Source: Candidatus Bathyarchaeota archaeon
Lineage (GTDB): Archaea; Thermoproteota; Bathyarchaeia; Bathyarchaeales; Bathycorpusculaceae
NCBI GenBank assembly: GCA_963733095.1
Contig: CAVTBV010000005.1
Span: 1-64,000 of the forward strand
DNA: 64,000 nt
Reading direction: 5' to 3'
In this document: positions 5,626 through 29,302 of the stretch, one piece after another
Layout: every line of letters begins with the position of its first letter
Position numbering within the stretch: position 1 is the stretch's first letter
The notes under the pieces: model-generated
The model's input: the letters and a program-made list of their open reading frames with translations, nothing else
Database searches by the model: none
Told to the model about the DNA's origin: nothing
Program-made: the position numbers and the translations under genes

Positions 5626-5662
5626 AACTGATATTAGAGAAGTATTATTAGCACACTGCTAC

Positions 5663-6303: not shown

Positions 6304-6324
6304 TGACAGTTGTTAAGACTGTCA
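6304..6324. promoter_or_regulatory. Palindromic operator TGACAGT-N7-ACTGTCA
   Basis: Perfect 7-bp inverted repeat just upstream of the wHTH gene in a divergent region. Confidence 0.6.
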
Positions 6325-6342
6325 TAGTGAGGTTAGATAAAA

Positions 6343-6594: not shown

Positions 6595-6600
6595 GCAAAA

Positions 6601-6846
6601 TTGCCATGCCTTCCATTCCTTTCAATCATTAGACGTCACAATCTTGGTCCTTTGAACGGTTACCTAGATAAAGAAACGACGCCTAAATTTGAAAAACCAA
6701 AGATCTGTCGCGTTTGCGATTACTTTCAAAAAGAAAATTATTGCAGACTTAACGCCATGTATGGAATTAAAGAAGAATCCAAGGCATGTTTCCGAGCCAT
6801 ACCCATCCAAAATAAGAGAGGATTACATTGGTATCAAAACCTGTAA
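6601..6846 (+). CDS. Small Cys-rich protein
   Basis: CRVCDYF...CRL...C motif. Confidence 0.6.
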   Translation: MPCLPFLSIIRRHNLGPLNGYLDKETTPKFEKPKICRVCDYFQKENYCRLNAMYGIKEESKACFRAIPIQNKRGLHWYQNL

Positions 6847-7001
6847 AACCTGAATTCTGTAGCTCATGCAATTACTATGAACCTGGAAGAACTTCCTGCA
6901 AATTAGGCTTCTACACTAATCCAAGAAATCGTTGTTGCGGAGAAGGAAAACTCATAGAAAAATCGGGTGAAAAACCAAAGTGTCAGACCGTTTCTTTTTG
7001 A
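6828..7001 (+). CDS. Small Cys-rich protein (57 aa, below ORF-track cutoff)
   Basis: TTG with GAGG RBS; FCSSCNYY...CKLG...CC. Confidence 0.55.
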   Translation: MVSKPVKPEFCSSCNYYEPGRTSCKLGFYTNPRNRCCGEGKLIEKSGEKPKCQTVSF

Positions 7002-7203
7002 CCGGAAAAATAGTACCAGCCAATTCAGCCGTTCCTTCAAAGTCTATGTTTTAGTTAATGAAGAGTTTGTCTTTATCGGATTGGTAACTCGGAAGGCTTT
7101 AGAAGCTCTATTACGTTTTCAAATCCCTCAAGCGGACATTTGTAAATTCGATCAAGCAGCAACGCAAGAACCATTAAATTTTAGCTTGGAGCTGAAGCCA
7201 TGA
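6967..7203 (+). CDS. Hypothetical protein
   Basis: ORF in tightly packed operon. Confidence 0.6.
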   Translation: MKNQSVRPFLFDRKNSTSQFSRSFKVYVLVNEEFVFIGLVTRKALEALLRFQIPQADICKFDQAATQEPLNFSLELKP

Positions 7204-7487
7204 CCAAGCACCAAGAACAAGAAATCTGCAAGGCTAACGTAGCAGAATCTTACCCTTACAAGTTTGATTTTCAATGTAAACGAGAAGGTAAATTTAGCAT
7301 TCGAAGTTCAAGGCGTCTTAAAACTAATCGAGAAATAAGTCTTAGAACCATTCCAGGAGACGTTTAACTTTGTGTCCTCCGATGTGTCCTAAAAGTACCC
7401 GATGCGCCGACTTCAAAATATTATGCGACAAATGCGTAAATTTCTCCAAGTTCACCGAAAAAATGAACATGGCGCTGGTGTACTAAG

Positions 7488-7856
7488 TTGGCAGCCAAAA
7501 AAATAGAGTCGCTTGTCAAGCTCAGAGACGCATGTACTATGGTTGCAGAGGCGTTAAATGAATATATCGACACACTCGCACCGAAAGAGACCAGAGAAGA
7601 AAAAACAGTAGTCAACGAAAACACCTTTACAACTCTAATATTTGATGTGCAACAAGGCTCAAAACTCGGAGCTTTTGAAGTCGCCTATAAGCAAACCAAC
7701 GTAACAGAGAAATTCCAACTCGCTTTTGAAGTTCTCTCGAAGTCAAACGCAACAATCCAATCTCGGTATCACTGCAAAGAATACGAGTTTTCATATTGGC
7801 TCTATGGTGAAGGCAAAATTTACCGGCAAAAACTCAAAGAGGCGTCTAAAAATTGA
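7488..7856 (+). CDS. Hypothetical protein
   Basis: 122 aa ORF in packed operon. Confidence 0.75.
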   Translation: MAAKKIESLVKLRDACTMVAEALNEYIDTLAPKETREEKTVVNENTFTTLIFDVQQGSKLGAFEVAYKQTNVTEKFQLAFEVLSKSNATIQSRYHCKEYEFSYWLYGEGKIYRQKLKEASKN

Positions 7857-7962
7857 AGACAGACGTCACATGCAACGGCTGTGCTCTTATCAAATGTGAG
7901 GTCCGAGAAAACGCCGACGGCTGCCCTGACGACGAAAAACAAACACAGGAGACGTTTCAGCA

Positions 7963-8196
7963 TTGACCGAGCACTTTTTTAAATGTCCCGATCCTGATTG
8001 TAACTGCCTTTTCCTGACACAACACGACTTAAACAAGCACATAACCAAGTTTGGAGAAAAACACGGCCAAGCACTCAAAGAAGTACACCAAAATTCTGAC
8101 AATCATTATGCCTCAATGGAATTTTCCGCGGCTGACAAACTCCAGCAAGAACTCGGCAAAATAGTTTTAGAACATTATGGAGCGTCTAAACGTTGA
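7963..8196 (+). CDS. C2H2 zinc-finger protein
   Basis: FKCPDPDCNCLFLTQHDLNKH...H. Confidence 0.75.
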   Translation: MTEHFFKCPDPDCNCLFLTQHDLNKHITKFGEKHGQALKEVHQNSDNHYASMEFSAADKLQQELGKIVLEHYGASKR

Positions 8197-11100
8197 ACGC
8201 AACGCAAGAACAGCAAATCATCCTAGTGCAACGCCTCAAAGAAAAAGAGCTATCAGTTGACCGCTTTTTAAAAGTCGGACCCGACAAAGCAGCCTTTGAA
8301 ATGGAGTTTCAAAAACTACCCTATAGCCCAAGCGACTTAGCAAGCTACGACCCATGCAACTGCAAATACTGCCACGGAACACAACCACATAAAAGATGGG
8401 GAATACTCGGCAAAGACTTCTTAGTTTTAGTTGACACCGACAAAAAAGAAATGTATGATAATTTAAGCAAAGTTCTCCCTGAAACTTTTGAAGTAACAAG
8501 CCCACGTAGAGGTTTACCGCATAAATATTTTTGCGTATGCGGCGAACAAGTCCCAAATAAAACTCTATACTTAGAGGGGGATGTTGACGACAAAGGCAGA
8601 CCTAACGGCGCTGGAGAGATTCGAGCACAAAACGAGTACTTAGTAGCTCCTGGCACAGAAATCACTTACAAAGACTTAACGACAAGTGAAGAAAAAACTG
8701 GAATGTACGTTATCTCCAAAAACGTACCAATCGCACGGATCGAATACGCCGAATTTATGGCCGCTGTGAAAACTTATTTCGGCAAAAATCAATCCCAAAA
8801 TATAACACGTGAAGAAATGGCTAACGGTGTTTCATCTGGAATGCGTCATGCTAAAGGTATAAGGTACGCTTGCCACTTAATCGGAAAAACAAAACTTGAC
8901 GCAGAAACAGCCTTTTTTGAGATGCAAAGATGGAATCAACTAAACAACCCTCCAATGGATGAAAAAGACCTTAAACGCCAAGTAAGAGATGCTTGCAGAT
9001 ACATAGCCAACGAAAACCAAATTCCAATAGAGCAAGTGATTGGATGCGGTGGAATAAAGAACCCAATATTTGTAGAGATAGACCAAGACGATTTAAAGGC
9101 AAAAACAGAACCAATTATACCAGGCGACATAAAAAAAGTCACGTATGCTGAAGCCCAGTCTCTTTTAGCACAAGGTTACGAAGTAACAAAAAGATATGCA
9201 GAAACGGTGGTAGTTGAGAGAAAAGCTTCAGGTTCAGAACAAACAAACGACGATGATAAGCCGATTGAAAGTCAAGCTGATCGACTAATAAAATATTGCC
9301 TTGATGAAATTCCAGAACTGTTTTTCGATCAACATGGCACACAATACGTCAGGGTTAAGTTAGCATTTAATCCTTTAACGCTCTTAGAAAAGGAGCTTGA
9401 TTTAGGCAATAAATCACGACATCACGACATTAACGATAAAAGTAACACCAATAGGGAAACCCCAAAAAATGAAGATGAAGAGAAAATAGAGGGTTCCCCT
9501 AAGAAGGCAGAAACACCGTTAATAGCGAGATGTCGTGATTACAAAAAGAAAATACAAGAGCTAAAAGAGCAACTTAAGGAAGCAAAAACCGACGACGAAC
9601 GCGAAGCAATAATTAACGCTATGCAATCGGAAAAACAAAACTTGCCCAAGCGAAACGTGATAATGCCTATTGAAAGTCAACAGTTCCGGAAATGGTTAGC
9701 TTATCTTATGTATGAAGCCGAAGAGAAAGTACCTGGAGGCGACAGCGTAAGAAATGCGATAAGTGTTCTTGGAGGTAAAATTCAAAAAGAAAGGCCGACA
9801 ATTCACGTTATATAACCGAGTAGCCCCGGCTGAAGCTGGAATATTCTTAGACATGTGTGATGATTCATGGCGAGCCATTAAAGTAACCGTTGAAGGCTGG
9901 GAGATTGTCAACGAAACCCCGTTTCCGCTTTTCAAACGCTATGCACATCAACAGCCACTAGTCGAACCTTTAACGGATAAAAAACAAGGCTCCGCATGGA
10001 AACTTTTGGAATTTATTAATATAAAAAGCAGTGATGCAAACTCAAAATTAGCCTTGCTGTGTTCAGTAATTAGTTATTGGATTCCCCTGATAGCTCACCC
10101 GGCTATAGTTGCAAGCGGCGCTCAAGGTACGTGTAAAAGTTGGTTTTTCAATGTTATCCGACAAGTGATTGACCCATCAAGCATTCCACTATTAACTGTG
10201 CCTAAAGATGATAGAGAAATGGCTCAACATTTAGAGCACAATTGGTTGACTCCTTATGATAATATTTCCAGTTTACCGAGCTGGGCTAGTAATATGTTAT
10301 GTCGCGCCGTAACTGGGGGAGGCATTGCAGTAAGAAAACTATACACCGACGACGAGGACATAATCTTAAACTTTAAAAGGTGTATCATGCTTAATGGAAT
10401 CAACGTAAGTGCTCAGAGCAGTGACCTTTTAGACCGATCCTTCATTTTTGCTTTAGAAACCATAAATAAACGTAAAACAGAAAAACAGTTATCAATCGAA
10501 TTGGAAAAAGCTAAACCTATTATCCTAACAGGGTTTCTTAATGTCTTGTCTAAAGCACTCAAAATTTATCCATCGGTCGAACTTAAAGAAATTCAACGGT
10601 TAAGCGACTTTCACTTTTACGGCTGTGCCATTGCTGAAGCGTTAGATAAATCTCAAGATCAGTTTAGCGAAGCATACAGAGAGAAAGTAAAAGCTCAGAA
10701 TGAAGAAGCATTAAACAACCAAGTGGCTTTAGCGGTTTTGAAATTTGCAGAGTTAACCGTTAAACCTATAGACACTGTGGATTTCGCTGGAACACCATTA
10801 AAATCTTACTGGATAGATCAGCCTTCAGCCTTATTTGCGAAACTAAATTACATTGCCGTTAATATTCTGAGCATTGACATAAAGACTAACAAAGAATGGC
10901 CGCGAAGCCCAGGCGCATTAACAAGAAAAATAAACGTTTTAATACCTAACCTGAAAGCGGTCGGGGTAGAAATTGTTAATTATTCGACGCATCCACGGCA
11001 AATAAGCATAGACGCAAAAAACCTAATAGTAAAAGAGCCTCCTTCCGATCCAGCAACAAACGCTATGGGAAAACGCTATTGCCGTGGCGAATGCGAAAAT

Positions 11101-11226
11101 TTCCGTTCTGCCGATTGCAAAAGACCCGATACGATGTTTGGGGAGAAAATAAAACTTTCTGAAACCGCTGAAATTCCTAAAGAGTGCCCAGGTTACAGTC
11201 AAGTTGGTTCTGGGGAGGCTTCTTAG
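8193..11226 (+). CDS. Primase-polymerase/PriCT fused to P-loop helicase/ATPase, +1 frameshift near 9790
   Basis: LVLVDTD, GLPHKYF, EIRAQNEYLVAPG prim-pol motifs; WNQLNNPPMDEKDL PriCT; GAQGTCKS Walker A, YDN Walker B, DLLDR; one extra A in CAAAAAGAAAGGC joins ORFs 8193..9815 and 9763..11226. Confidence 0.85.
9412..9540. repeat. Nested inverted repeat inside primase gene, candidate element origin
   Basis: AATCACGACATC 9412-9423 / GATGTCGTGATT 9529-9540; ATTAACG/CGTTAAT; TAGGGAAACCC/GGGTTCCCCTA; tandem CACGACAT. Confidence 0.65.
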
Positions 11227-12360
11227 TTGGAACCTCAAGTTCAAATCGCTAACCTTGTTTGCCCTGAATGCGGCAGCGATAAAGCTTTTAAAAATGGCAC
11301 TAGAGAGCTACCAAACGGCGAAATAAAGCAGCGCTATATGTGCCGTCAATGCATGCACAGATATACGTTCCCACCAGCCTTAAAAGTCAAGGATAATGTA
11401 GATAACAACAACCAAATAGGCGCCTTTAAGGTGAAAAACTTGGTTCTCACAACCCAAAATGAAGTTGTGGGTGATAACGCAAAATTATTCGACTTCCTAG
11501 AATGGATGAAACAGCAAGGCTATAAAAAATCAACTATTGATAGAAGGCAATCAGCTTTAACAGGGCTACAAAAACTTAAGGCAAACTTAGAAATGCCCGA
11601 ATCAGTAAAATCCGTTATATCAAAACAGGAACATTGGAAAGACTCGCAAAAACAAGTAGTGGTATTTGCTTATGATCTCTACGCTAAACATTACGGTTTC
11701 ACATGGGATAGACCATATTACGAAGCAATCCGCGAACTGCCATTTATCCCTCAAGAACGAGAAATTGACGATTTAATTGCAGGTGTCAACAAAGAAATAG
11801 GCTTGCTCTTGCTAATTGCAAAAGAAACAGGTGCTAGAGCTGGAGAAATTTACGGTTTACTATGGACTGACATTGACTTTGAATCTAAAACATTAAGCAT
11901 AAGGGCAGAAAAAAACAGCAATCCAAGACGCTTTATATTAAAACCTAAACTTCTTAACATGCTTGAATGCTATCCTAAATCAACTGAAAGTATTTTCAGC
12001 CGCTACAAATCCTTGAATGACCTGAGACGTACTTTTGAAAGACAACGGAAACGGCTTGCTTACAAACTATCAAATCCCAGGATGCACAAAATAAAAATCC
12101 ATACATTAAGACATTGGAAAGGAACCACTGAGTACGATAAAACAAAAGATATTCTCCATGTTATGCAAGTGCTTGGACACAAGAACATCAAGAATACTTT
12201 GCTCTATACGCAGCTTGTTAGTGTTGGTGAAGATAAAGGGTTTATTTGCAAGGTAGCTAAAACCCCGACTGAAGCAGTTGCATTGATTGAAGATGGCTTT
12301 GAATTGCATTGTTGTTATGGCGAAAAAGACGAAGTTAAACTGTTTAGGAAGAAAAAATGA
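11227..12360 (+). CDS. int: Tyrosine integrase with N-terminal zinc ribbon
   Basis: CPECG...CRQC ribbon; TGARAGE, HTLRH, LGH, Y catalytic set intact; adjacent to tRNA. Confidence 0.93.
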   Translation: MEPQVQIANLVCPECGSDKAFKNGTRELPNGEIKQRYMCRQCMHRYTFPPALKVKDNVDNNNQIGAFKVKNLVLTTQNEVVGDNAKLFDFLEWMKQQGYKKSTIDRRQSALTGLQKLKANLEMPESVKSVISKQEHWKDSQKQVVVFAYDLYAKHYGFTWDRPYYEAIRELPFIPQEREIDDLIAGVNKEIGLLLLIAKETGARAGEIYGLLWTDIDFESKTLSIRAEKNSNPRRFILKPKLLNMLECYPKSTESIFSRYKSLNDLRRTFERQRKRLAYKLSNPRMHKIKIHTLRHWKGTTEYDKTKDILHVMQVLGHKNIKNTLLYTQLVSVGEDKGFICKVAKTPTEAVALIEDGFELHCCYGEKDEVKLFRKKK

Positions 12361-12363
12361 TAA

Positions 12364-12405
12364 TGTCGCATGTTTATGACGACACTGTAAAAGTGTCGTA
12401 TGTTT
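12364..12405. repeat. Putative integrase arm-type sites
   Basis: TGTCGCATGTTT 12364-12375 and TGTCGTATGTTT 12394-12405; inverted ACGACACT/AGTGTCGT. Confidence 0.6.
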
Positions 12406-12422
12406 GTCCAAAGTTACCATGG

Positions 12423-12499
12423 TGGTGCCGAGGGCAGGGTTTGAACATGCGACGACTCGGTCTTCAGCCGAGCGCTCTCCCAGGCTGAGCTACCTCGGC
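12423..12499 (-). tRNA. tRNA-Phe(GAA)
   Basis: GCCGAGG...CTCGG CTGAAGA CCGAG...TTCAAAC...CCTCGGC A CCA cloverleaf. Confidence 0.95.
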
Positions 12500-12567
12500 A
12501 CATAACCCGGGACACCACATCACAGATGAAATGAGGTGTTTTAAAGTTTTCTGATGCATTCTTTCTC

Positions 12568-12690
12568 TTAGATGCCCAGTAAAGTATAGTGGTTCATTAG
12601 GAGGTATCCGACTAATGCGCTGCCTATAAAACAAGTAAAAATCAAGACGCCATCGTGTTTGTGTTCTTCAAATCGGTCATTCTCATGCAA
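12568..12690 (-). CDS. Possible 40-aa membrane peptide
   Basis: TTG with AGGAG upstream; GVLIFTCFIGSALVGYLLM hydrophobic stretch. Confidence 0.35.
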   Translation of the reverse strand: MHENDRFEEHKHDGVLIFTCFIGSALVGYLLMNHYTLLGI

Positions 12691-12775
12691 TTTTTTCGTT
12701 CTCCTGACTATAGTTTCTGTGTTTGATAGGTAAAGGTTTTATGAAGGAAACCTATGTATTGACAATCTAAAATGC

Positions 12776-12852
12776 GGGCCGTTAGTCTAGCTGGCTAGGA
12801 CGTCGCCCTCACGCGGCGAAGATCACCGGTTCAAATCCGGTACGGCCCACCA
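12776..12852 (+). tRNA. tRNA-Val(CAC)
   Basis: GGGCCGT...TCGCC CTCACGC GGCGA...ACCGGTTCAAATCCGGT ACGGCCC A CCA. Confidence 0.96.
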
Positions 12853-12954
12853 ATTCTTTTATCTATCAAATCAACCGTCTTCTATTCTCTGTTTTATTGA
12901 CTTAATAATTAACGCTTATTAATCTAGAAAGAGAAATAATATTAGTGACTTTTT

Positions 12955-18027: not shown

Positions 18028-18741
18028 TTAAATCATTTTGTTTCCAAACTTGTTGTAGTGAGTGAAATCTGCTGTGTCCCGTCGTACTTGAAGGTATTTA
18101 GCTGCTCCAGTTGGATGCCCCAAACGGCAAGTGTAAGCAATCTTTAGTTGTTCAGGAATACCAAGGACCTGCTTTACCTGTTTTTCTACTGGTTGCGCAG
18201 CGAAAGCACTGAGAATCTGCAAACTAATTCCCAAAGACTGAGCCATAAGCCACATGTTCTCCATAACGCAACCAAGACTCATGAATCCCAAAACATCGCC
18301 TTCAGACGCTGGCGCCCTCTTTTTTGGGTCATAAACCACAATCAGAAGGCAAGGGCTACCCCGAATGGACTGGGTAAGTGGCATAGGCTCACTTTTGTGG
18401 GCAACCTCAGCCATTTTCGATGGGTCAACCCAAGCAGGAGGAAACATGGCGCCTAAAATTCCAGTCTTCTTTTTGAGCAATTCTTCTTTAGAGAACGAAA
18501 GCTGCTCATAGTTCTCTCGCAGAAACTCTTCAGAAATCCGCGATTTCACATTTCCAATTATCTCTAAAACCTCTTTATCATCGACAACGACGATTTCGAA
18601 GTTTTGCATATTGTGGGCGGTAGGTGCCCATCGTCCTGCATCCAAAATCTGCTGCAGATGTTCTTTTGATACTTTTTGGTTGGGGTCGAAGGGGACTCTT
18701 GCTGATTGTCTTTCTTGAATTATTCTTTGGACTTCATTCAT
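18028..18741 (-). CDS. Nitroreductase family protein
   Basis: RQSAR, WAPTAHNMQ, ENMWLMAQSLG. Confidence 0.92.
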   Translation of the reverse strand: MNEVQRIIQERQSARVPFDPNQKVSKEHLQQILDAGRWAPTAHNMQNFEIVVVDDKEVLEIIGNVKSRISEEFLRENYEQLSFSKEELLKKKTGILGAMFPPAWVDPSKMAEVAHKSEPMPLTQSIRGSPCLLIVVYDPKKRAPASEGDVLGFMSLGCVMENMWLMAQSLGISLQILSAFAAQPVEKQVKQVLGIPEQLKIAYTCRLGHPTGAAKYLQVRRDTADFTHYNKFGNKMI

Positions 18742-19756
18742 ATTGAGGCGTCTCCAATTTTTAAAACTGCTCTAAAATGGACTTTTGCAGTCATCATACG
18801 TTCAAAAGCGGTGGCGGCTTGCTCGAGGGAAAAAACTTCAACCATGGGAACTACATGTGTCAGGACGCTAAAGTTTAGTGTGTCAGCGGTGTTTCCTCCT
18901 ACCCAGCCACTAACTGACCGAACCGCACGCATCAGTTGCGTTGGAGAAATCTGCATTGGTTCATTAACGAACGTTATGATGATTAGTTGTCCATTGCGAG
19001 CAAGCCCCTCGACTAGGTCTCCTATGGCTTTACTGTTGGGCGCAGTGCAGAATATGGCGCGTGCTCCCCCCAGCTTCATGAGTTCCTGACTTGGATTAGA
19101 GGTTTCTGCATCGATGTAAAACTTGGCTCCAAGTTTACTGGCTAGCTCTTTTTTTCTTTGCCACGAGAAATAACAGCGGTTTTCATTCCAAGCCGCACAG
19201 CAAACTGCAATGCCAAATGTCCCAAACCACCAAAACCCTGAATTGCGATTAAATCTCCGCCCTTTGCGGCGCTGCTTTTCAAAGCACCAAGCGTGGTTGC
19301 CCCTGCACATAAGAGTGGTGCAGCTTCCACGGAAGTAAGTTCTTCAGGAATAACTGTTAAAACATCCATACGAGCAACCATATATTCTGCGTATCCTCCG
19401 TCAGTTGAAATACCTGTCGCCAAGGGACTCTCGCATGCCCCGTAATCACCTTTTAGGCAAGATATGCACTTTTGGCAGTGACCGCCGCGCCAACCAACCC
19501 CCACCCTTTGCCCAACCTTCCAGTAATGCGATTGAGAACCCAACTTCACAATCGTGCCGACCACCTCGTGCCCAGGAGTTCGCGGATAGTGCAAACCAAG
19601 AAACCCCCCGTACTTAACGATCGCGTCACCATGACAAATGCCGCAGGCTTCAACTTTTAGGAGGACTTCGTGGTCTTTTGGCGCAGGAATCTCCTTTTGT
19701 ACTAGAACAAATTCGCCACCAGGATGATTAACTTGGATTGCTTTCATATGCGCCAT
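18738..19756 (-). CDS. Zn-dependent alcohol dehydrogenase, frameshift in A7 run near 19150
   Basis: CGICHGD, GHE, GFGGLG; split over two ORFs at a homopolymer. Confidence 0.9.
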
Positions 19757-19854: not shown

Positions 19855-19882
19855 TGTGTACAAAAGCATCGCCAAAACATAC
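19855..19882 (-). repeat. Dispersed motif 1, copy A (degenerate)
   Basis: Reverse complement GTATGTTTTGGCGATGCTTTTGTACACA. Confidence 0.75.
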
Positions 19883-19933
19883 AAAATGACTTTTCTTTTT
19901 TTAAAATTTTTATCCGGCCAAATGGCAAAAACC

Positions 19934-19962
19934 TCGAAACTTCCCGAACCTTATATATACAT
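19934..19962 (+). promoter_or_regulatory. Motif 2, copy 1
   Basis: TCGAA ACTTCC CGAACCTTATATA TA CAT. Confidence 0.75.
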
Positions 19963-20602
19963 GCAGCGCTTAAACCAAAAATTGCAGAAAATCCTCTTCA
20001 CGTGTCATAATATTCCAAACTTCAAGTCACAGAATAAAAAAAATAGATGCGCTAAATAAAAGAGTTGAAATTGGCCTTCTTTTAGCCCTTGACCGAAAGC
20101 AGAAAAAACCCCGCGAGGGTCCTGAATTGTTTGGTAAATCCTTGTTTCAGTTTTTTTTGGTATCGATGAAACTAAAACCCTATTAAATTATGCTCCGAAC
20201 AGCTGTAAGCGGCATTTCTAGTTAAGCGGACAAGATTTCTAATTCCTGGTGGCATATTGCAGATTTAGAATTCTTAGAGTTTTTAGAACCTTTTGACCGA
20301 AATCTATTTGATTAGGATTATGAGTTGATTTTTCTTAATCGAAAAATGATCGAACTTTCACTATTAACATTAAAAAGTTAAAATTAATATTGCCACTTCG
20401 ATTAAAGTGATTTAAACATGTAGAAATATCCATGAGATTTATTATTTTTTGAGCTACGAGCAGCGAAGAAGATTCGTTTTTTATTTTTATAAATTTGAGG
20501 AAAGGTTATTTCAGCGGATCATCATATATTTTCAAATAATCTATAATGATGGGGCTGGTTGAAGACTGCTGTGAGGGTGAATCGGTTGGATGAGGATTCT
20601 GC

Positions 20603-20634
20603 AAAACTGTGTTTGGGAGATGCTTCTGTATACG
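20603..20634 (+). repeat. Dispersed motif 1, copy B
   Basis: AAAACTGTGTTTGGGAGATGCTTCTGTATACG. Confidence 0.88.
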
Positions 20635-20725
20635 GTTCACTCACAAGTCAGAAGGGCTGTGCGCAAATGTTAACGTATTTTGGCGTTTCTTGCTATGTCT
20701 ATGTTAAATTTTTTGAGGGATAGTC

Positions 20726-21439
20726 GTGAGTATTGAACGGAATCTGACATTTTCACTCTTAAAATTAACTAAAGAAGGACCTATTTTAATTGAAAGTGTC
20801 AATAAAGACGCCAAGATACCTGCGATTGTCGCGAAGAAGTTGCTAGAGAAATTTCAAAACGAAGACCTCATTTATCTTAAAGACAGAGCCATAGAAGTAA
20901 ACAGTGCCAGCAGGCTCAAACTAGCCGTTAAAGCAGCATCTTTAGGCGGAGACGTGGAATACATAGGCGATTTACTATGTTGGCAAGAGTTCGAAGAAAT
21001 CGCCGCGATAGCACTCAAAAACAACGGCTACAAGGTGCAAAAAAACTTTAGGTTCAAACATGGACCAAAAAGATGGGAAATCGACATCGTCGGCTGCAGA
21101 AAACCCATAGTTATCTGCATCGACTGCAAGCATTGGCAACGGGCAATCTCTTCGTCAGCCCTCAAGAAAATTGTTGACCTGCAAACACAAAGAGCCCAAG
21201 CGTTGGCCGATTCCTTGCCCATCTTCAACACAAAACTTGACTGCGTTAAATGGGAAAAAGCAAAGTTCATACCAGCCGTACTCTCCCTTATCCCCAGCGC
21301 CTACAAGTTCTACCAAAAAGTCCCCATTGTGCCCGTTCTCCAGCTTCAAGACTTCATATATCAACTGCCGGCTTACACAGAAACTCTAAAGTTTTTTCCC
21401 AAAAAATTCAAAACTTTAAGTCATGATTTTGAGGATTGA
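20726..21439 (+). CDS. wHTH plus PD-(D/E)XK nuclease-like protein (Mrr/NERD-like)
   Basis: WQEFEE, EIDIV, IDCKHW. Confidence 0.85.
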   Translation: MSIERNLTFSLLKLTKEGPILIESVNKDAKIPAIVAKKLLEKFQNEDLIYLKDRAIEVNSASRLKLAVKAASLGGDVEYIGDLLCWQEFEEIAAIALKNNGYKVQKNFRFKHGPKRWEIDIVGCRKPIVICIDCKHWQRAISSSALKKIVDLQTQRAQALADSLPIFNTKLDCVKWEKAKFIPAVLSLIPSAYKFYQKVPIVPVLQLQDFIYQLPAYTETLKFFPKKFKTLSHDFED

Positions 21440-23290
21440 TGTTTTAGCAAGCCTAAACGCGGGGTAGAGGCTTACGATGAACATTACAAGCAAGGCTGCA
21501 AGTAGCCAAGCACTTATTTCTACGATAGTAAAGCCTGTAACCAGTGGGTTTTTCATTAAAATTAGCAAAGTTGTGGTTACGCCAAGTGAAATTCCTACTG
21601 CAAAACTGGAAATAAGCACGATTGCGGTTTGAATCGCCGAAATAAATACAATTATTCTTGGTTTAGCTCCGAAGGCGCGTAAAATGGCGAATTCTTGGTG
21701 TTGCTCATCGGCGGATAGCATCATGTAACCGACTAGGCAGATGGCGGCTGAGGCTAAGGTGAAAAGCGGCAGAAGCATGATTGTTTGCCAATTTGAGAAT
21801 AGAAAAACCGTGTTTTGTTCGACCAGCGAGTTTAGGTCAAACACTTCTAAATCATAACCTGATGCTTGGACTACACTCTTTATTTCATTAATAGCTGCAT
21901 TACGATTTGTTGAATTGTTAAGTTTAACCAGCAACAGGTTATTCTCATGCAATCCTGTAGCATTCTGCAATTCCTCGATGGGCGCATAGGCGACATAACC
22001 ATTGTTTAATGGGTCAACACAGACCCCAACTATCTTAAAAGTCACATTTTCAATCCCTATGCCCTCTTGCAACGGATCAGCCAAACTAATTTTATTTGCT
22101 AAATCAGGCACATACATTGTTTCGGCGATTGAATCTCCCACAACCGCTTCAAAAGCAGAACTGTTGCTTAAAAATCGACCATCAATCGACCAAGAACCAA
22201 CAGCAACAGTAGGGTTTACACCAACTATTATTGATTGACCAACGCGATGATCACCCACAAACTGTGTCTGTGAGCTGTCTTGCGCGAAAGCGAAGCCAGC
22301 CACTTCCTTAACATTCAGGTCTATAACCAGCCTTGGATCAACATGTTCAACAGCGTTTAGGGTACTCAGCTGGTGATTAACCGTTTCAGGAACGGCTAAT
22401 TTTGGGTCTGAATAGTTAAAGGGGCTTGTTTGCTCGATTTTTGAAAAATTCGACAATAACAGTTTGTACTGATTAATCATTGAGCTATACCCGATAGCAA
22501 GGGTATCTTTGCCGATTGGTGTTTCGATAGATGATATTGTGGTGTCGCTTGCGATTATTCCGCCAGCCACAGAAACTGTCAACAAAATAAAAACAATCGA
22601 TAACAAAAAGACGATGCGTAGACTTGCTGATTGACGTCGATATAAGCTTCTCAGGGCAATTCGCAAAGTTATCCCTCGTCTAGAGAGCAGCTTAAGTTTG
22701 GTTTCTCCCGTTAAACCGTAGTAGTTCACTGGTGAAAGCGCTTCTATAGCGGACATTTTAGCGGCTTTAAGGATAGGACGTAAACCAAAAAATATGGATA
22801 GAACAAAAAACGTGACAAAAACCAAGATCGCGTACCAAAAATTAGGCAGCACATATTCAGAAAAGACCAATTGTGAGACCACAAAGTCTGCTAAAAAACC
22901 AAAAACTATGCCCAATATACACCCAACGAAGGTAACCGTCAAGAGCTCTGTCATAAAGTATCCTCCGACAAGACTGTTTGGGCATCCAGCAGCTTTTATT
23001 AGCCCAAAATCACGGGTCCTCTGTGACATCATCAAAAAAACAATAAATGAAGTTAAAACTGCACCTATGATAAAAATCAAGATTCCGATGAATAATATAA
23101 ATTGACTAAAGATTGCGGTTAAACCCAGCGTTAACCGTCCTGTGGCTGATGCGAAACCTACGCCTAAGCGACTGCTAAATAGCAAAAGAAACAGCGTAGA
23201 AGCCACACTCAACGTTAAAGTCGCGATTGTTAGGCTTGTTTGCAGTTTCCTTCGAAGCAAATCGTTGATGGGAAAACCGGTACTACTCAT
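21416..23290 (-). CDS. MacB/FtsX-type ABC permease
   Basis: RTRDFGLIKAAG and EFAILRAFGA repeats. Confidence 0.9.
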   Translation of the reverse strand: MSSTGFPINDLLRRKLQTSLTIATLTLSVASTLFLLLFSSRLGVGFASATGRLTLGLTAIFSQFILFIGILIFIIGAVLTSFIVFLMMSQRTRDFGLIKAAGCPNSLVGGYFMTELLTVTFVGCILGIVFGFLADFVVSQLVFSEYVLPNFWYAILVFVTFFVLSIFFGLRPILKAAKMSAIEALSPVNYYGLTGETKLKLLSRRGITLRIALRSLYRRQSASLRIVFLLSIVFILLTVSVAGGIIASDTTISSIETPIGKDTLAIGYSSMINQYKLLLSNFSKIEQTSPFNYSDPKLAVPETVNHQLSTLNAVEHVDPRLVIDLNVKEVAGFAFAQDSSQTQFVGDHRVGQSIIVGVNPTVAVGSWSIDGRFLSNSSAFEAVVGDSIAETMYVPDLANKISLADPLQEGIGIENVTFKIVGVCVDPLNNGYVAYAPIEELQNATGLHENNLLLVKLNNSTNRNAAINEIKSVVQASGYDLEVFDLNSLVEQNTVFLFSNWQTIMLLPLFTLASAAICLVGYMMLSADEQHQEFAILRAFGAKPRIIVFISAIQTAIVLISSFAVGISLGVTTTLLILMKNPLVTGFTIVEISAWLLAALLVMFIVSLYPAFRLAKTSILKIMT

Positions 23291-23975
23291 TATTACCGAC
23301 CAATTTGCCCTCTTCTAAACAGAAAACCTGGTCTGCTAGCTCTCGAATCTGCGCGTCATGGGTTGAAACTATGACGGTTTTGCCTTGGGATTTTAAAAGT
23401 TGGAGCACTTGGATGATTTTTTGGGCATTTTTTACATCCAAATTGCCCGTAGGTTCATCCGCAAGAATCAACTCTGGATTATTCGCCAGAGCCCTTGCAA
23501 AAGCAACGCGTTGTTGTTCTCCACCGCTTAGTTGCGAAGGAAAATGGTTTGCACGATGTGCCAATCCCACCGTTTTTAAAAGTTCCTCAACTCTTTTTTC
23601 TGTTTCATGCGCAGGTTTTTGAGTCCACTCCATTGGGAAAGCCACATTTTCAGCTACAGTTAGAGTAGAAACAAGATTGTAAGCTTGAAAAACAAAGCCC
23701 ACGTTGTTGCAGCGGAAATCTGAGAGGAAATCCTCATCTTGCACGGTCAAATCTTGTTGGGCAACAAATACTTTTCCTTTGGTTAGCCGGTCAATTCCAC
23801 CTATGATATTAAGCAGGGTTGTTTTACCTGAGCCCGAAGGACCACATAGGACTGCAAAGTGTGCTTTTGGAATCTGCAGGTTCACATCTTTTAGAACGGT
23901 AATTTTGCTATATCCAAGGTCGTAGGTCTTTTCTAAGGCTTGAACAGAGACCATTATCCCTTCTTCACTGGTCAT
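23283..23975 (-). CDS. ABC ATPase (LolD/MacB-like)
   Basis: GPSGSGKT, LSGGEQQR, DEPTGNLD. Confidence 0.95.
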   Translation of the reverse strand: MTSEEGIMVSVQALEKTYDLGYSKITVLKDVNLQIPKAHFAVLCGPSGSGKTTLLNIIGGIDRLTKGKVFVAQQDLTVQDEDFLSDFRCNNVGFVFQAYNLVSTLTVAENVAFPMEWTQKPAHETEKRVEELLKTVGLAHRANHFPSQLSGGEQQRVAFARALANNPELILADEPTGNLDVKNAQKIIQVLQLLKSQGKTVIVSTHDAQIRELADQVFCLEEGKLVGNNE

Positions 23976-24056
23976 TAGTTCTCGTTCCTACCCCTATGTG
24001 TTAAGGTTCAGGTTACCTTTAAGGTAATAAGTTTGCGGTACACTTGTTTTACGTGC

Positions 24057-24494
24057 TTATTGCTGGTAGCTGGTGTCGATGTTAAAGTTTCCGCGGTCGC
24101 GTTTTAGGATTCGCACTTTGTCGGGGAGCTTATTTTTTTCCCAGTCAGTCCAGCTGATTTCCTTGAACAGCCACCGTTTACCCAGATGCGCCGCTACCAC
24201 TGCATGTTTGTTTTCGTTTCCTGTAGGGATGAATTGAGTGAGAAACTGGAAGAGTTTGTCGATTTGTGGTTTGGGAAAGTAGGCGTAGTAGCTGGCGTTT
24301 TTTACTTCAAACGCGTAGACGTGTTTGCCTTTTCGCGCCATGAGGTCTGGTAGGGGGTTGAGGCTGGGGTTGCTGACGGGGACACGGACGGCGTTGTAGC
24401 CTTTTTTCTGCAGGAGTTTGACTAGGACGGTTTCGCTGTAGAAGCCTCTTTTGCGCCATCGCCTAAGTTTTATTCTGTCGATCTCTGTAGTCAA
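24057..24494 (-). CDS. hjc: Hjc-family Holliday junction resolvase
   Basis: RG..SE..LV..L..KGY.AVR.P.S, PDLMA, FEVK. Confidence 0.82.
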   Translation of the reverse strand: MTTEIDRIKLRRWRKRGFYSETVLVKLLQKKGYNAVRVPVSNPSLNPLPDLMARKGKHVYAFEVKNASYYAYFPKPQIDKLFQFLTQFIPTGNENKHAVVAAHLGKRWLFKEISWTDWEKNKLPDKVRILKRDRGNFNIDTSYQQ

Positions 24495-24564
24495 CGGTTT
24501 CCCTTCTCTGAAATACCTATTTATTGGGCTCTTGGCATAAAAATTGTTCCTCAGGAGAACCTGG

Positions 24565-24595
24565 AAAGTGTGTTTTGGGGATGCTTCTGTATACG
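24565..24595 (+). repeat. Dispersed motif 1, copy D
   Basis: AAAGTGTGTTTTGGGGATGCTTCTGTATACG. Confidence 0.88.
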
Positions 24596-26084
24596 GGGAG
24601 TTTGGGCTGGTGTAGCTGGTGCGGGATGGTGAAGATGTAAATCTAAAGTATTACTAATACAACTATAGCCACTGATTACGTATTTTTCAACATCCACACA
24701 AGAAAAATAACCACTATTTAGACTACAGTAAGGGCTTGAAATGTCGCTGTTGATGCAAAAGAGCTGACAAAAACAATCCCTTAGACACCCAAAAAACTAG
24801 CTCGAAATCTCAAAACTCCAACTCCGAGGCGTTGCCGTCTACAAGAAAGAAACTTTCAGGCACTATCACCACAAAAAGCACCCAGGCAGAGCAATCACAA
24901 AACAGCACAAGCCACAAACAAAGAATCCGCAAAGAAGAACATGGGGTCCAAAAGTCAACGTCACAAAACGAAAACAAGTTCCAAAAAAAATCAATTCCGT
25001 TTGGCAAAAAATTTTCTAAAAAAATAGGGCCAAATTGCCAAAGTTTGTTAATTTGCCAAAAAAGCAGTGTTTACCCTCGAAGGATAGCCGAAAAAACAGA
25101 CATTTGCTTCGCATGGAGATTTTCGGAGGTACTTATATGAGGCTCTGGTAATGTCCATGCCAGTTGTTTATGGCTAAAGCGAATACGATGTAATTGGGGT
25201 TTTTTTGATGTTTTGGGCTCAAATTGAGGGTTTTGATTATGGTTTCCATAGAAAAAAATCACGGCTTTTTGCATTTATCGCCTTTCGAATCAAAACAATG
25301 GTTTTAATACACATTTGAGCCAAAATGAGCCCATACCCGGGATTTTTTAGAAAAAAAGCCCTAACGAATACCCGAAATTTTTTGAGTTAAAAAACCTGAA
25401 ACAAATTTGTATTTGATTAGAAGAAAATCAATTCCCAAAACATATTTTGAATTTAAACCAGGTCGGCCCTAACAGTTTAAAAAAAAGTGTGCGAAGAGTT
25501 GGATCCGACAAACATTTTTGAGAAAATTGACTCTGATTATGACGCCCAATCGTGTAGGACGCTGGACCGATGAAAGCCATTTGTGTCTGGATCCAGTATA
25601 GTATTGACGTCGCCTCAGGGATACAGAATTTTCAACTTTGGCTGGTTGTGTACTAAAGCATATTTTAGCGCTTGAATCATAAGGTCCCCGTCGACTATAC
25701 CTCAAAAATAAGTTACTTTACTTTTCGTTTTGTCTCATTTTTGACTAAGAAAATCAATCTTTTTTTCTCTCTTTGACAGTTAGCTCCAAAGAAAGTGGTT
25801 TGCTAATTTGTGAAAAAGCAGTAGTCAAAAGCCTTCTAATTATTTAGAGTTGGTAGTATATTCGCCCAGCGTCGATGATCTTACCCAATTGTTTTATCTC
25901 TGTTTGACTGAGACATTTGTTATGTAGTGCCTTTGAACTCGTCCAATTCTCGCATCTTCTCCTCGCTGCTGGGCAAGGGGTCTTTTTATCTTCAAGTCAG
26001 CTTCAACCTCCCGTCTGAATCGGGATCGGCCACTGAAGCCGGATCAACAACCCCACCAGAATCGGCGAGTGGACCATAGAAATA

Positions 26085-26114
26085 GTTGTTGTTGTTGTTG
26101 TTGTTGTTGTTGTT
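26085..26114 (+). repeat. (GTT)10 microsatellite
   Basis: Read directly. Confidence 0.9.
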
Positions 26115-26412
26115 GCAACTGCATTCTGCACACCGGTTGCAACAACTTTCAGATTTAATTTTAATTGTTGAGGTTTACTCTTTATTGCAGTCCGAGTCTT
26201 GCCCATAAACATCGAAACAGTTGAGAACAAGGAGAAGAGGATGGTCAAGGAGAAAATTATGAATACACTATTTAAACGTGTAAACACCAGTTACAATGCT
26301 TCGAAAGTTTCAAAATTGGCTCTAAAGTCAACATTGAACGGTCAACCCTGCAGCTGTAGAGCCAAAAGTCGTGAATAACTAAAGTTGTTGTACCAACATC
26401 TATGCCCAAAGC

Positions 26413-26444
26413 TGTATACAGAAGCATCGCCCAAACACAGTTTT
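26413..26444 (-). repeat. Dispersed motif 1, copy E
   Basis: Reverse complement AAAACTGTGTTTGGGCGATGCTTCTGTATACA. Confidence 0.9.
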
Positions 26445-26500
26445 TGAGCATCTTCGAAAACCTTTTCAACCAAACAACCCATACAACAATGGGGTCTTCA

Positions 26501-26917
26501 ATGTCTGCCTTCAAAGTTGTAAATAAAACCTTCAAGTTCCGCACCCAGGGCGAAATAGACTTTATAGACTTAACCGACAAAATCCAAGAAGAAGTTTCCG
26601 ACTCAAAAATTAAAAATGGTATAGCCCACATTTTTGCTCCACACGCAACAGGCATATTGGTCTTAACTGAAAACGACGGCGCCTTGCTTGAGGACATTAA
26701 AGTTTTTCTGAAAGAACTCGTACCAAAACATCAGGAATACCAGCACCCATCCAATGCTCACGCCCATCTGCGATCCCTGCTTCTACCACCCGACAAGACT
26801 TTGCCAGTTATGGACGGGCACGCGGTGTTTGGGACATGGCAGTCGCTGCTTTTTGTAGAGACTGACGTTTATCCAAGGGAAAGAACGATTATTATCCAGG
26901 TCATGGGCGAGCAATAA
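26501..26917 (+). CDS. YjbQ/UPF0047 family protein
   Basis: DLTD, PHATG, NAHAHLRS, FGTWQS; real start probably ATG 26501. Confidence 0.92.
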   Translation: MSAFKVVNKTFKFRTQGEIDFIDLTDKIQEEVSDSKIKNGIAHIFAPHATGILVLTENDGALLEDIKVFLKELVPKHQEYQHPSNAHAHLRSLLLPPDKTLPVMDGHAVFGTWQSLLFVETDVYPRERTIIIQVMGEQ

Positions 26918-27451
26918 AAAAAGTAAGCTACTCCGGAATTTATCAAAAAAGTTTCAGAAAACTCCATTTTTCGCTTATAGAAAAGAGAAAAAGTAAGCAT
27001 CAACATCCAAAATTAACTATTTTATTATAAATACGCAAATTGATGCCCACCATTTTCACTGTTTATTGTAAAAAGTTAAGGTTCGAAAAAATTTCGCCAG
27101 CTAAAAAATCCCACCAAATTAAACAAGAACCAGAGAGCCAGGCAAACAACGCCAATACAAAAAAACAACTGAACAAGAACTATTATGAGACTGAAAAAAC
27201 ATCAAAACAGTTACGCGCCAAACATTAAAAAGCCAAAATCCAGCATTAATTCCACTGAAATTGCCCGATAACGCTTTCTAAAACCCATTTTTGAGAGCCT
27301 GCAGGCTTTCAATAACGTCATAGGCTAAGTTGCCCGCCTTAAATGTGCTTAAACAAACTCGAAACAACTTTTATTAGGTTTGGTGACGGTAAAAATTAAA
27401 GGTACCACTTTGTTCTGATAGTAGTTGCTTTTTTTCTCGAGCATTATCTGC

Positions 27452-27480
27452 ATGATTATATAAGGTTCGCCATTCTTCGA
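27452..27480 (-). promoter_or_regulatory. Motif 2, copy 2
   Basis: Reverse complement TCGAA GAATGG CGAACCTTATATA AT CAT. Confidence 0.75.
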
Positions 27481-27486
27481 AAAAAT

Positions 27487-28227
27487 TTAGCCTTTTCGTT
27501 CTGTTCGAATCCGCTTAGCAGACCCTTTAGGGCGCATGCGGGCTTTTTTCTTAACCTCAGCTCTTTGCAAAGGTTTCTCTTCTAACGCGTCAGGCTGTGC
27601 TTCTTCGATAGGTAATTCATCCACGGCATCTGGGAAATCTTCGGCTGTAGCTTGCAGGGACCCTTTTTTAAGCATAGTCTCTATAGCGCGGTCAACATCG
27701 CCTGGTTCCACATTAATGCCTAAAGTTGCATCAGCAAGCAACACTGTTTCAAAGCCAAGTTTACGTGCATCAACAACCGTGTTCAACACACAGTAATCGG
27801 TCGCTAAACCACCCACAAAAAGCCGTTTAACCCCCATAGCCCGTAAATCGTGATCAAGGCTTGTACCGTCAAAAGCTGAATAAACTTCTTTTTCTGGGTT
27901 AGTTGCTTTGGAAATGACGACTGTGTGCGGAGGTAGTTTTAGGTTGGGGCTAAACTTTGCGCCGCTTGTTTCTTGCACGCAGTGTGGAGACCATAGACCT
28001 CCCTGTGTCTTAAAGGATACGTGGTTCTTAGGGTGCCAATCTCTGGAGGCTAAAACATGTGCTTTAGAACCCTCAAATCGCTTAATGTAGCTGTTGAGAA
28101 CAGGTATTATTTCGTCGCCGTTTTCGACTGGCAAGGCTCCACCAGGCAGAAAATCTTTTTGTATGTCAGTTATTAAAAGGGCGTCCGAGTTTTTTAAAAT
28201 GTAGTTTTTACTCAAATAAGTCACCAT
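27487..28227 (-). CDS. pncA: Nicotinamidase/pyrazinamidase
   Basis: DIQKDFLPGGAL, RDWH, HCV, GLATDYCV. Confidence 0.93.
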   Translation of the reverse strand: MVTYLSKNYILKNSDALLITDIQKDFLPGGALPVENGDEIIPVLNSYIKRFEGSKAHVLASRDWHPKNHVSFKTQGGLWSPHCVQETSGAKFSPNLKLPPHTVVISKATNPEKEVYSAFDGTSLDHDLRAMGVKRLFVGGLATDYCVLNTVVDARKLGFETVLLADATLGINVEPGDVDRAIETMLKKGSLQATAEDFPDAVDELPIEEAQPDALEEKPLQRAEVKKKARMRPKGSAKRIRTERKG

Positions 28228-28370
28228 CTTTAAAATCCACAGTTCTTTTAGAAGTTATGCTAAAACCTGTACTAAATAAGAGAAAAGGTATGGATAAACT
28301 TTTTTGCTGCATACGCAGATGGGTGGAAAAGTAATTAAGACTTAACATGAATAGGTTGATGGTGAAATTC

Positions 28371-28640
28371 ATGGCAATTTTAGCGTATGTTCTTTTCAAA
28401 GTTGCATCAGGAGCCGAAAGGGATGTAGCTCAAAAACTCATCGAATTCAAAGAAGTCAATCAGGCGGACATTGTTTTCGGCGAATACGATGTGATAGCTG
28501 AGGTAACGGTTCAAAGTCTTGAAAAGCTTGAGGAATTTGTCTCGGAGAGCATCAGAAACGTTCCCGGCGTACTTGTTACGTCTACTATGATTATTTCCCG
28601 CGAGTACAAGGGAAAAAACTCTCGAGCAAAAAACAAGTAA
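28371..28640 (+). CDS. Lrp/AsnC ligand-binding (RAM) domain protein
   Basis: AYVL...VFGEYDVIA...IRNVPGV..TSTMI. Confidence 0.9.
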   Translation: MAILAYVLFKVASGAERDVAQKLIEFKEVNQADIVFGEYDVIAEVTVQSLEKLEEFVSESIRNVPGVLVTSTMIISREYKGKNSRAKNK

Positions 28641-29197
28641 CTTTCTTTCAATAGTTTTTCAAGTTTCAATTTTTGAGAAATTCTGAGCGAGAGCAATCTT
28701 CAGGATTGAAGGGCCACATTTCGTTATTGGTTAACATTTTATACAAAGACGTCTATGGTAATTTGTAATTATATTGTTTATTTTTATTAAGTAGTCTATG
28801 GTTGTTTCAACTTTTTAATGTAAAAAAATAACATTCGACAGCTTTTCGTCTGGCAAAAGAGGATAAGCAGAACAAAATAGTCAAACTTGGTTCCTCAGGA
28901 AGAGATAACTGCAGAGTGAATTAGACAAAAAAAGAGTTGCGTCAGAAGACGTGAGGTTCAACATCACCTAAAAAAACTCTTAATGGTTGTTTTGAGGACA
29001 AAATTTTGTTGTCGTTTCGCGTTTATCGCCTGCTCACTATCTAAAAGAAGTAAGGCAGTCTAATTTTGCGGAACTACCCCGTTTCGAACCCACAAGACAC
29101 AATGTTTTTTTCCTCAAGATCACCCTTTTTAGTGCTGCTAAGCAAAAATTCAAACAAGGTCGGCGAGTTTTCCTATTTACATTTTTTTAGCTTTCAT

Positions 29198-29226
29198 ATG
29201 AATATATAAGGTTCGTTGAACTTCGA
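29198..29226 (-). promoter_or_regulatory. Motif 2, copy 3
   Basis: Reverse complement TCGAA GTTCAA CGAACCTTATATA TT CAT. Confidence 0.75.
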
Positions 29227-29270
29227 ATTTTTTGCGATTTTTTGAATTCAAGATTTCACGGATTGCAGTA

Positions 29271-29302
29271 AAAAGTGTGTTTGGGCGATGCTTCTGTATA
29301 CA
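29271..29302 (+). repeat. Dispersed motif 1, copy C
   Basis: AAAAGTGTGTTTGGGCGATGCTTCTGTATACA, 27 nt identical to copy E. Confidence 0.9.

Follow-up and report, generated by a model that had tools for sequence, protein, structure and literature searches.

A conserved, oriented DNA box clustered opposite the canonical replication origin in a family of Bathyarchaeia

Box copies and genes of the cluster

Analysis of a 64-kb stretch of DNA from a Candidatus Bathyarchaeota archaeon (NCBI GenBank assembly GCA_963733095.1, contig CAVTBV010000005.1; C5:1-64000 of the host genome, hereafter the window) revealed a cluster of oriented boxes of about 30 bp. Sequence comparison indicated that the box is a real, strongly conserved, lineage-specific oriented DNA element, and its layout on the scale of the genome points to a function tied to the replication axis and the terminus. 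The genes of the cluster are a split ADH gene, a gene coding for a predicted winged helix-turn-helix (wHTH) protein with a nuclease core, FtsX and ABC transporter genes, hjc, yjbQ, an isochorismatase-family gene, a lone AsnC ligand domain and the pair nnr-tsr3.

A search with TGTGTTTKGGNGATGCTTCTGTATAC at three mismatches or fewer returned five matches in the window and none in 100 dinucleotide-preserving shuffles, at the sites that an earlier sequence-only reading of the window had given for five oriented copies of about 30 bp. Four copies had no mismatch to TGTGTTTKGGNGATGCTTCTGTATAC while the copy at 19.9 kb had three. The copies and the two genes most often referred to below are as follows.

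19856..19881, minus strand: box copy 1, the most diverged (weight-matrix score 32.1), left member of a divergent pair
20603..20633, plus strand (match 20608-20633): box copy 2, right member of the divergent pair
20726..21439, plus strand: wHTH-nuclease gene, 237 aa, N-terminal winged helix followed by a PD-(D/E)xK core (Mrr/NERD/YraN-like)
24057..24494, minus strand: hjc, the sole Holliday-junction resolvase gene found in the host genome, 75 bp from the unit described below
24564..24594, plus strand (match 24569-24594): box copy 3, the well-kept end of the unit
26414..26445, minus strand (match 26414-26439): box copy 4, converging with copy 3 over a distance of 1.8 kb
29270..29302, plus strand (match 29276-29301): box copy 5, 54 bp upstream of nnr (29355) and co-oriented with it

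All five copies lie between about 50 and about 100 bp from a gene start, in agreement with the earlier description. Copy 1 is located about 100 bp upstream of the split ADH gene (start 19756) and is co-oriented with it, copy 2 is located 92 bp upstream of the wHTH-nuclease gene (start 20726), the hjc start at 24494 is separated from copy 3 by 75 bp, and the likely yjbQ start (26489) from copy 4 by about 50 bp, with copy 4 in the orientation opposite to yjbQ. Copy 4 is the counterpart of a box that in relatives faces the 3' end of lonB, and a degenerate half-unit lies behind it. The two copies said to be identical over 27 nt with unrelated flanks were copies 4 and 5, whose last 27 nt are indeed identical (33 nt at 97%) and whose flanks are unrelated. 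The ADH gene directly downstream of copy 1, the most degenerate copy, is split in two overlapping open reading frames (ORFs), ADH_N at 19142-19756 and ADH_zinc_N at 18738-19310 (together 18738-19756, minus strand), and is a probable frameshift or pseudogene.

When the search at three mismatches or fewer was extended to the whole host genome (2.84 Mb in 16 contigs, 95% complete), all five matches to TGTGTTTKGGNGATGCTTCTGTATAC were again those of the window cluster on contig C5. A position-weight matrix built from 81 box sites in relatives picked up further copies on contig C1, three diverged ones (19560(-), 53855(-), 204469(+)) and a weak one. The box is thus strongly clustered yet not strictly confined to the cluster; the confinement to a 10-kb cluster held for the window and for the genome at three mismatches, and did not hold for the genome under the weight matrix. 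The strong copies in the 2.84-Mb genome number eight and every one of them is intergenic. According to the matrix the box has 25 informative asymmetric positions, worth about 40 bits. The closed genomes of relatives contain 3-13 copies (three in G008, 4-13 in G101-G104). The 5' half of the box was 0.632 identical within genomes and 0.606 between genomes (permutation p ~0.014), a weak effect, and concerted evolution of this half was not retained on so small a difference.

Conservation in the family and the convergent unit

The conservation in relatives that had been suggested as a check was found throughout the family. The box was present at three mismatches or fewer in 48 of the 101 family genomes, with no match for a reversed control, and its 17-nt core was present at one mismatch or fewer in 90 of the 101 and in 56 of the 59 high-quality genomes, with 0-3 control matches per genome. 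A strict pattern of two convergent boxes was detected in 18 of 98 genomes of the family (f1) and in the single genome of a sister family (f6), while none was detected in about 200 genomes sampled from other families of Bathyarchaeia.

Many genomes carry exactly one forward and one reverse box, 230-258 bp apart, and nothing more. The convergent pair encloses conserved blocks, which are TTCACCAAG, a short hairpin, CTGTAGGCTAAA, GTAWTAC and TCACCAGCA..TCCAGA. The oldest form deduced from these comparisons is one unit of about 300 bp, in which two inward-facing boxes surround conserved non-coding DNA beside lonB/hjc. In unit-only genomes the gene order is yjbQ<-GNAT<-, the unit, about 500 bp and ->lonB->hjc, and in f6 it is HIT->, the unit and ->hjc. 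There is one unit per genome and it is syntenic across more than 13 genera; a paralogous half-unit lies behind the box facing the 3' end of lonB in several of them. The interior of the unit has 35-43% GC and no long A/T-only tract.

The window carries its own version of the unit in the second of its long spacers, and at least 13 other family genomes have a homologous convergent-pair unit. The features of the spacers are as follows.

19925..20400, plus strand: element E1, between copies 1 and 2, which starts with CGAACCTTATATA, resembling a B recognition element and TATA box, and ends with TCGAAC..TTACATTAAAAAGTTAAAA
24564..24880, no strand assigned: the unit, consisting of a box, about 250 bp with the blocks GGTGA..GTAWTAC..CAC and TTTAGACTACAG, and a degenerate inverted box
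25104..25160, plus strand: inverted-repeat/TATA-like block CATGGAG..TTATATGAGG..CCATG, which in relatives lies about 350 bp upstream of lonB
27010..27485, minus strand: element E2, paralogous to E1 and E3, in the spacer from yjbQ to the isochorismatase-family gene
28760..29235, minus strand: element E3, a paralogue of E1 and E2

The right-hand box of the window unit (about 24853-24877, minus strand) is strongly degenerate and is placed by alignment alone. Spacer 2 (24595-26413) contains, besides the unit, the block that is upstream of lonB in relatives, a small poly-Thr ORF and the degenerate half-unit beside copy 4. A close lonB was not found in the host genome by tblastn, whose best result was a Lon-like match of 25% identity on contig C12, and a lonB remnant in spacer 2 was discarded as a candidate on that result. 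The elements E1-E3 are paralogous, non-coding and about 470 bp each. Their leading sequence CGAACCTTATATA occurs exactly three times in the 2.84-Mb genome, at the head of E1, E2 and E3 (19945, 27469 and 29215), and the dispersed-repeat test gave no blastn match to the elements outside the cluster. The promoter-like module of E3 is 64 bp from copy 5 and is directed away from it. The architecture of E1 within the divergent box pair is conserved in 13 related loci of several Bathyarchaeia lineages. The spacers, which had been called gene-free, are so for the most part, and they hold these conserved non-coding elements and at least one small ORF (26003-26287, minus strand).

This small ORF carries a (GTT)n/poly-Thr run, especially at about 26091-26201. 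Stretches of about 50-65 nt around this run are repeated at 11 other places on eight contigs with 83-95% identity, and a 204-nt stretch matches C10:73226-73413 at 78%; a family of paralogous genes may have this region in common as its 5' part. Elsewhere in the window, positions 1-12860 contain a run of ORFs without Pfam matches that ends in a tyrosine integrase gene (11227-12360) adjoining tRNA-Phe (12423-12499, minus strand) and tRNA-Val (12776-12852, plus strand), and this segment looks like an element integrated at a tRNA gene. An NRDD gene (anaerobic ribonucleotide reductase; 58800-61016, minus strand) codes for an N-terminal ArsR-type HTH/DUF7347 domain and an ATP-cone. Other genes of the window are TBP (33278), TFS (39782), TFB (41477), a RadB-like gene (42983) and PolB (43943).

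The short non-coding segment bounded by terminal inverted repeats of 25-31 bp recalls either a site-specific recombination locus, such as dif in dimer resolution, or a domesticated element of the kind of a miniature inverted-repeat transposable element (MITE), of which the solo boxes would be relics. On this view the terminal inverted repeats would be bound by a recombinase or derive from transposase-binding sites. We consider this origin of the unit improbable. There is one unit per genome, about opposite the origin as for dif, and hjc adjoins it. In two reports (PMC2958812, PMC11840125), the dif of Thermococcales is placed in a large intergenic region of 1.9 kb with flanking inverted repeats, and in T. 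kodakarensis the DNA around dif, rather than dif, is the Smc-dependent boundary of a chromosome domain. The unit resembles the XerA/dif locus and its Smc-ScpAB/TrmBL2 boundary in being a single terminus-region locus whose conserved core is flanked by inverted repeats and whose surrounding intergenic region is unusually large. It differs in that the window spacers gave no conserved 11-6-11 inverted repeat (a search for dif-like 11-(5-8)-11 repeats gave six weak 9/11 hits, none of them in the conserved blocks) and in that the boxes are longer, asymmetric and dispersed with polarity. No XerA above the NCBIfam cut-off was found in the 95%-complete host genome, where the best of 20 tyrosine-recombinase-like matches to NF040815 scored 102.5 bits, the cut-off being 220. 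No recombinase gene is linked to the unit.

A MITE or insertion sequence (IS) would likewise be expected to look different from a single syntenic site conserved across more than 13 genera, whose solo boxes are polar with respect to the origin, a polarity that the recombination reading leaves unexplained. No target-site duplication was seen by eye at the ends of the unit, and the boxes are probably not the ends of an IS or MITE, a match to which the sequence-only reading had named as a result that would undo its proposal. Contigs from four DNA sequencing runs showed no inversion or deletion joints at boxes; these contigs are fragmentary and uninformative either way. A look for RNA sequencing runs covering the 9.7-kb stretch turned up none.

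RNAalifold applied to the whole unit returned the pairing of the terminal repeats only, with 0 pairs in 23 aligned 5' modules, which argues against a role of the box in RNA, whether at the 5' end or in the leader of mRNAs and small RNAs or as the site recognised by an antisense RNA transcribed from the unit. Such a role was suggested by the conserved sequence behind the box in the unit and in the half-unit beside lonB, by some GGUGA/UCACC changes that seemed compensatory by eye, and by the far end of the unit, where the box recurs as its reverse complement. Variation in the GGTGA box is independent of that in the TCAC box, a symmetry test around GTAWTAC gave no pairing pattern, and by eye the arm mismatches are not G-U-compatible. 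Rfam searches of the window and six related loci at gathering and permissive thresholds detected tRNAs and one chance hit only, with no support for the box or the unit. A function in RNA is therefore the reading to which we give the least credence, as very improbable.

Chromosomal position and polarity of the boxes

The sequence-only reading had compared the boxes with those of archaeal origins. Two orc1/cdc6 genes (Cdc6_C matches) were found in the host genome, both on contigs other than C5, and none was found in the 64-kb window, as that reading had stated. Beside cdc6-1, at C1:63315-64123, lies a canonical oriC with three origin recognition box (ORB)-like sequences (TCCAGTAGAA..GGGGTG), inverted around an A/T-rich tract of about 80 bp. 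The trio, at 63.5-64.0 kb of C1, occurs nowhere but beside cdc6-1, and the same trio was found beside cdc6-1 in the complete chromosome G101. PolD DP2 and RFC genes are located within 50 kb of the host oriC.

Archaeal origins and the box cluster share oriented asymmetric boxes that are inverted around non-coding DNA and conserved within a lineage. They differ in box sequence (GTGTTTKGNNGATGCTTYTGTATAC, compared by eye, was dissimilar to the real ORBs beside cdc6-1, as the earlier statement that the motif is unlike the canonical ORB implied), in the lack of an adjacent initiator gene in the cluster and in position. The cluster is not at the canonical oriC but opposite it, and the specific analogy with an origin found no support. 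In complete chromosomes the distance from the cluster to cdc6-1 was 0.51 (G101), 0.50 (G102), 0.48 (G103) and 0.50 (G104) genome lengths; in near-closed genomes, whose rounded sizes make the fractions approximate, it was about 0.49 (G008), 0.45 (G083), 0.51 (G105) and 0.47 (G106). The cluster was therefore 0.45-0.51 genome lengths from cdc6-1 in eight of nine assessable genomes, and the tally is not nine because G013 disagrees. To call the cluster opposite the origin assumes that cdc6-1/oriC is the main origin.

A second, non-canonical origin opposite oriC1, with the boxes serving as ORBs for the second Orc1/Cdc6 or for another initiator, was also weighed. Many Thermoproteota use several origins, and opposed origins would shorten S phase; the host has two orc1/cdc6 genes, and the cluster offers inverted asymmetric boxes around conserved non-coding DNA as well as long AT-rich spacers with promoter-like modules. 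No initiator gene adjoins the cluster, and cdc6-2 lies 0.18-0.27 genome lengths from it in G101-G104. The interior of the unit is unlike oriC1 in composition, the box is unlike the ORBs beside cdc6-1, and boxes near the cluster aim at the cluster while those near oriC1 aim away from it, a single fork direction per arm. A second origin is thus quite unlikely in our judgement.

The orientation of the copies was then scored along the chromosome arms. Copies within about 12 kb of the unit were set aside as the core cluster, and a copy was counted as fitting when it was on the minus strand to the left of cdc6-1 or on the plus strand to its right. Outside the core clusters, 29 of 30 copies, at about 13 loci distinct by gene context, were oriented from origin to terminus. 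By genome the fits were 3/3 in G000, 2/2 in G101, 3/3 in G103, 7/7 in G104, 7/7 in G105, 3/3 in G106, 2/2 in G107 (one site weak), 1/1 in G108, 1/1 in G109 and 0/1 in G083; G102 and G008 had no copies outside the core at the threshold used and are absent from the count. The PhoU_div locus is located on opposite arms in G104 and G105, and its box is flipped to match. At C1:19560 of the host and at locus L219 the box is antiparallel to both neighbouring genes, yet the polarity is kept.

Proposed function and comparison with known systems

The placement of the boxes with respect to genes bears on the most obvious alternative, in which the box is an ordinary cis-regulatory operator or activating site of a transcription factor (e.g. 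the wHTH-nuclease or an Lrp/AsnC-type protein) controlling a handful of syntenic operons, such as nnr-tsr3, lysE-macro, wHTH-nuclease, lonB-hjc, GNAT-yjbQ, hypA and others. The sequence-only reading had kept a local regulon as its alternative. All copies are intergenic and most of them share the orientation of a neighbouring gene. The box lies 33-133 bp upstream of nnr, lysE and the nuclease gene across genera, and some neighbours are NAD(P)-linked (nnr, isochorismatase/nicotinamidase-like, macro, prs, ADH, GDH, FMN reductase).

The wHTH-nuclease gene was found in 75 of 101 family genomes. Among 77 related loci with enough upstream sequence, a box was located 48-112 bp upstream of the gene (median 91) in 70, a divergent partner box in 65 and both boxes in 60; the fixed position at about -91 looks like autoregulation. 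Residues E118, D120, D133 and K135 were invariant in 23 sequences. No sequence match was found in the PDB, and Foldseek matches were weak (best E 2.3e-3), to the Can2/Card1 nuclease, MarR/IclR and FokI. The protein is a candidate for the box-binding factor; four genomes that keep the unit and in which the gene was not found speak against it as an obligatory binder.

Other placements do not fit an operator. The spacing between box and nnr core promoter ranges from about 5 to about 60 nt, and a fixed distance was seen only at the wHTH-nuclease gene. Boxes are also located 3-45 bp past the stop codons of tsr3, S19, PhoU_div, HemN-like, ABC-3 and PurQ genes, between convergent genes (L215, L220 and the 3' side of lonB), in divergent promoter regions with the box directed away from both genes, and antiparallel to both neighbours; in unit-only genomes neither box is directed towards its flanking gene. 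The neighbours have no common function and include the genes for S19, PhoU_div, RIO kinase, aquaporin, ABC-3 permease and a transposase, so that no coherent regulon emerges. An operator rarely has as much as about 40 bits in 25 asymmetric positions, and this reading leaves both the position relative to cdc6-1 and the polarity of the outer copies unexplained. The regulon alternative is weakened by these findings, and we regard it as rather unlikely, with more in its favour than the alternatives discussed above. Directly behind the ribosomal protein S19 gene at L205 and L214 (G104 C1 ~2189 kb; G105 C1 ~1881 kb), the box opens a gap of about 190-530 bp in a normally contiguous ribosomal-protein operon.

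A local regulon agrees less well with the data than the broad proposal that the boxes are sites of a system for replication, segregation or chromosome organisation. This proposal is favoured because of the conservation across the family, the position in eight of nine genomes, the polarity of 29 of 30 outer copies and the unrelated flanking genes; the origin analogy attached to it found no support. Tentatively, and with somewhat less than even confidence, we propose that proteins bind the oriented boxes and that these sites belong to a system which follows the replication axis and converges on the terminus, possibly as a polar barrier. A putative sequence-specific DNA-binding factor would occupy the oriented boxes as part of a chromosome-level system, neither a local regulon nor an origin. 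The ancestral unit of about 300 bp beside lonB/hjc is located about opposite the cdc6-1 origin, and larger genomes have extra boxes along both arms, directed from origin to terminus, so that the arrows converge on the unit. In the mechanism that we grade most likely, the complex of protein and box would act as a barrier or insulator whose effect depends on direction. The way from origin to terminus would be open to replication forks, and perhaps to RNA polymerase or SMC complexes, and the reverse way would be hindered; the unit would then define or protect the termination site. The conservation, clustering and polarity of the boxes, their position relative to cdc6-1, their intergenic placement and the lack of RNA structure are observed, and from these we infer protein binding, barrier activity and the status of cdc6-1/oriC as only or main origin.

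Several observations weigh against this explanation. Inside the core clusters only 17 of 27 copies converge (4/6 in G101, 3/4 in G103, 4/6 in G104, 3/5 in G105, 3/6 in G106) and 10 do not; copies that face outward, in line with their genes, are found left of the spacer of the nuclease gene and at nnr or lysE, and the order of boxes in the window is - + + (-) - +. In a simple fork-trap model, incoming forks would be blocked by the copies that face outward. The majority of copies share the orientation of one or both adjacent genes, a box at about -91 is almost constant at the wHTH-nuclease gene, as for an operator, and the unit is kept in G025, G050, G053 and G026, where that gene was not found. 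In G013, a single 0.9-Mb contig of 75% completeness, a rather degenerate unit lies about 102 kb (0.11) from cdc6-1. Symmetric inversions keep polarity automatically. The second cdc6 gene, itself a complication, is also found at a fairly conserved distance from cdc6-1 (0.24-0.34), and because the distance to the origin is fairly conserved for other loci too, related genomes are not independent draws.

Composition offered no help in placing origin or terminus. The GC-skew check that had been proposed was uninformative in the window, in the host contigs and in G101. In 59 alternate 20-kb stretches of G101 no replichore signal was found in GC, AT or third-position (GC3) skew or in gene orientation (Mann-Whitney U, p 0.11-0.72), a 3-6-mer skew scan over 30 partitions of the 59 sampled stretches was flat, and the window profile and host contig skews gave no origin or terminus signal. 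The gene-orientation bias was weak, 51% and 60% on the two sides of the host oriC and +0.12 versus -0.06 in G101 (p=0.11), a weakness that counts in favour of the proposal.

Among known systems the layout of the boxes is closest to that of bacterial Ter sites with Tus (E. coli) or RTP (B. subtilis). The sites of Tus-Ter and RTP-Ter are likewise asymmetric and about 23-30 bp long; a chromosome has from a handful to about a dozen of them, which are concentrated opposite the origin, opposed on the two arms and convergent in the innermost pair. In these bacteria, the neighbouring winged-helix or terminator-protein gene (tus, rtp) has a site in its promoter. The likeness is one of layout, without sequence or protein homology, and no search for Tus or RTP homologues was made. 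The differences are that the host is an archaeon with a CMG/MCM helicase, that boxes also occur near the origin, that the interior of the unit is conserved, and that 10 of 27 core-cluster boxes face outward, which a simple trap does not predict.

An independently evolved archaeal analogue, in which the boxes and a lineage-specific protein would pass forks one way and stop them in reverse and the convergent pair beside hjc would fix the point where forks meet, is the narrower form of our proposal, and we hold it doubtful. By analogy of layout alone, the sites of the eukaryotic terminator and barrier proteins Reb1/TTF-I, Fob1 and mTERF and of CTCF-type boundaries are comparable: they are oriented, lie just behind genes or just before promoters and halt a single process from one side, with convergent pairs at a special locus. 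Archaea are not known to have a termination system or polar barrier that is defined by sequence. Termination in Sulfolobus is reported to occur by stochastic fork collision (PMC3020120). A review of bacterial fork traps describes no archaeal trap in its passages on archaea (PMC10331603), and the literature searches made here found no description of this box or of an archaeal fork trap.

Even if it were a regulon, the box would be among the most information-rich conserved non-coding elements of the family, and it draws attention to conserved non-coding modules nearby that resemble promoters. Should the boxes be polar and converge on the terminus, an archaeon with a eukaryote-type CMG helicase would have evolved a Ter-like or insulator-like solution. 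The system would then provide a handle on how CMG replisomes are halted or steered, and the box would be a simple sequence marker of the terminus and of replichore polarity in a widespread uncultured lineage that has no usable skew.

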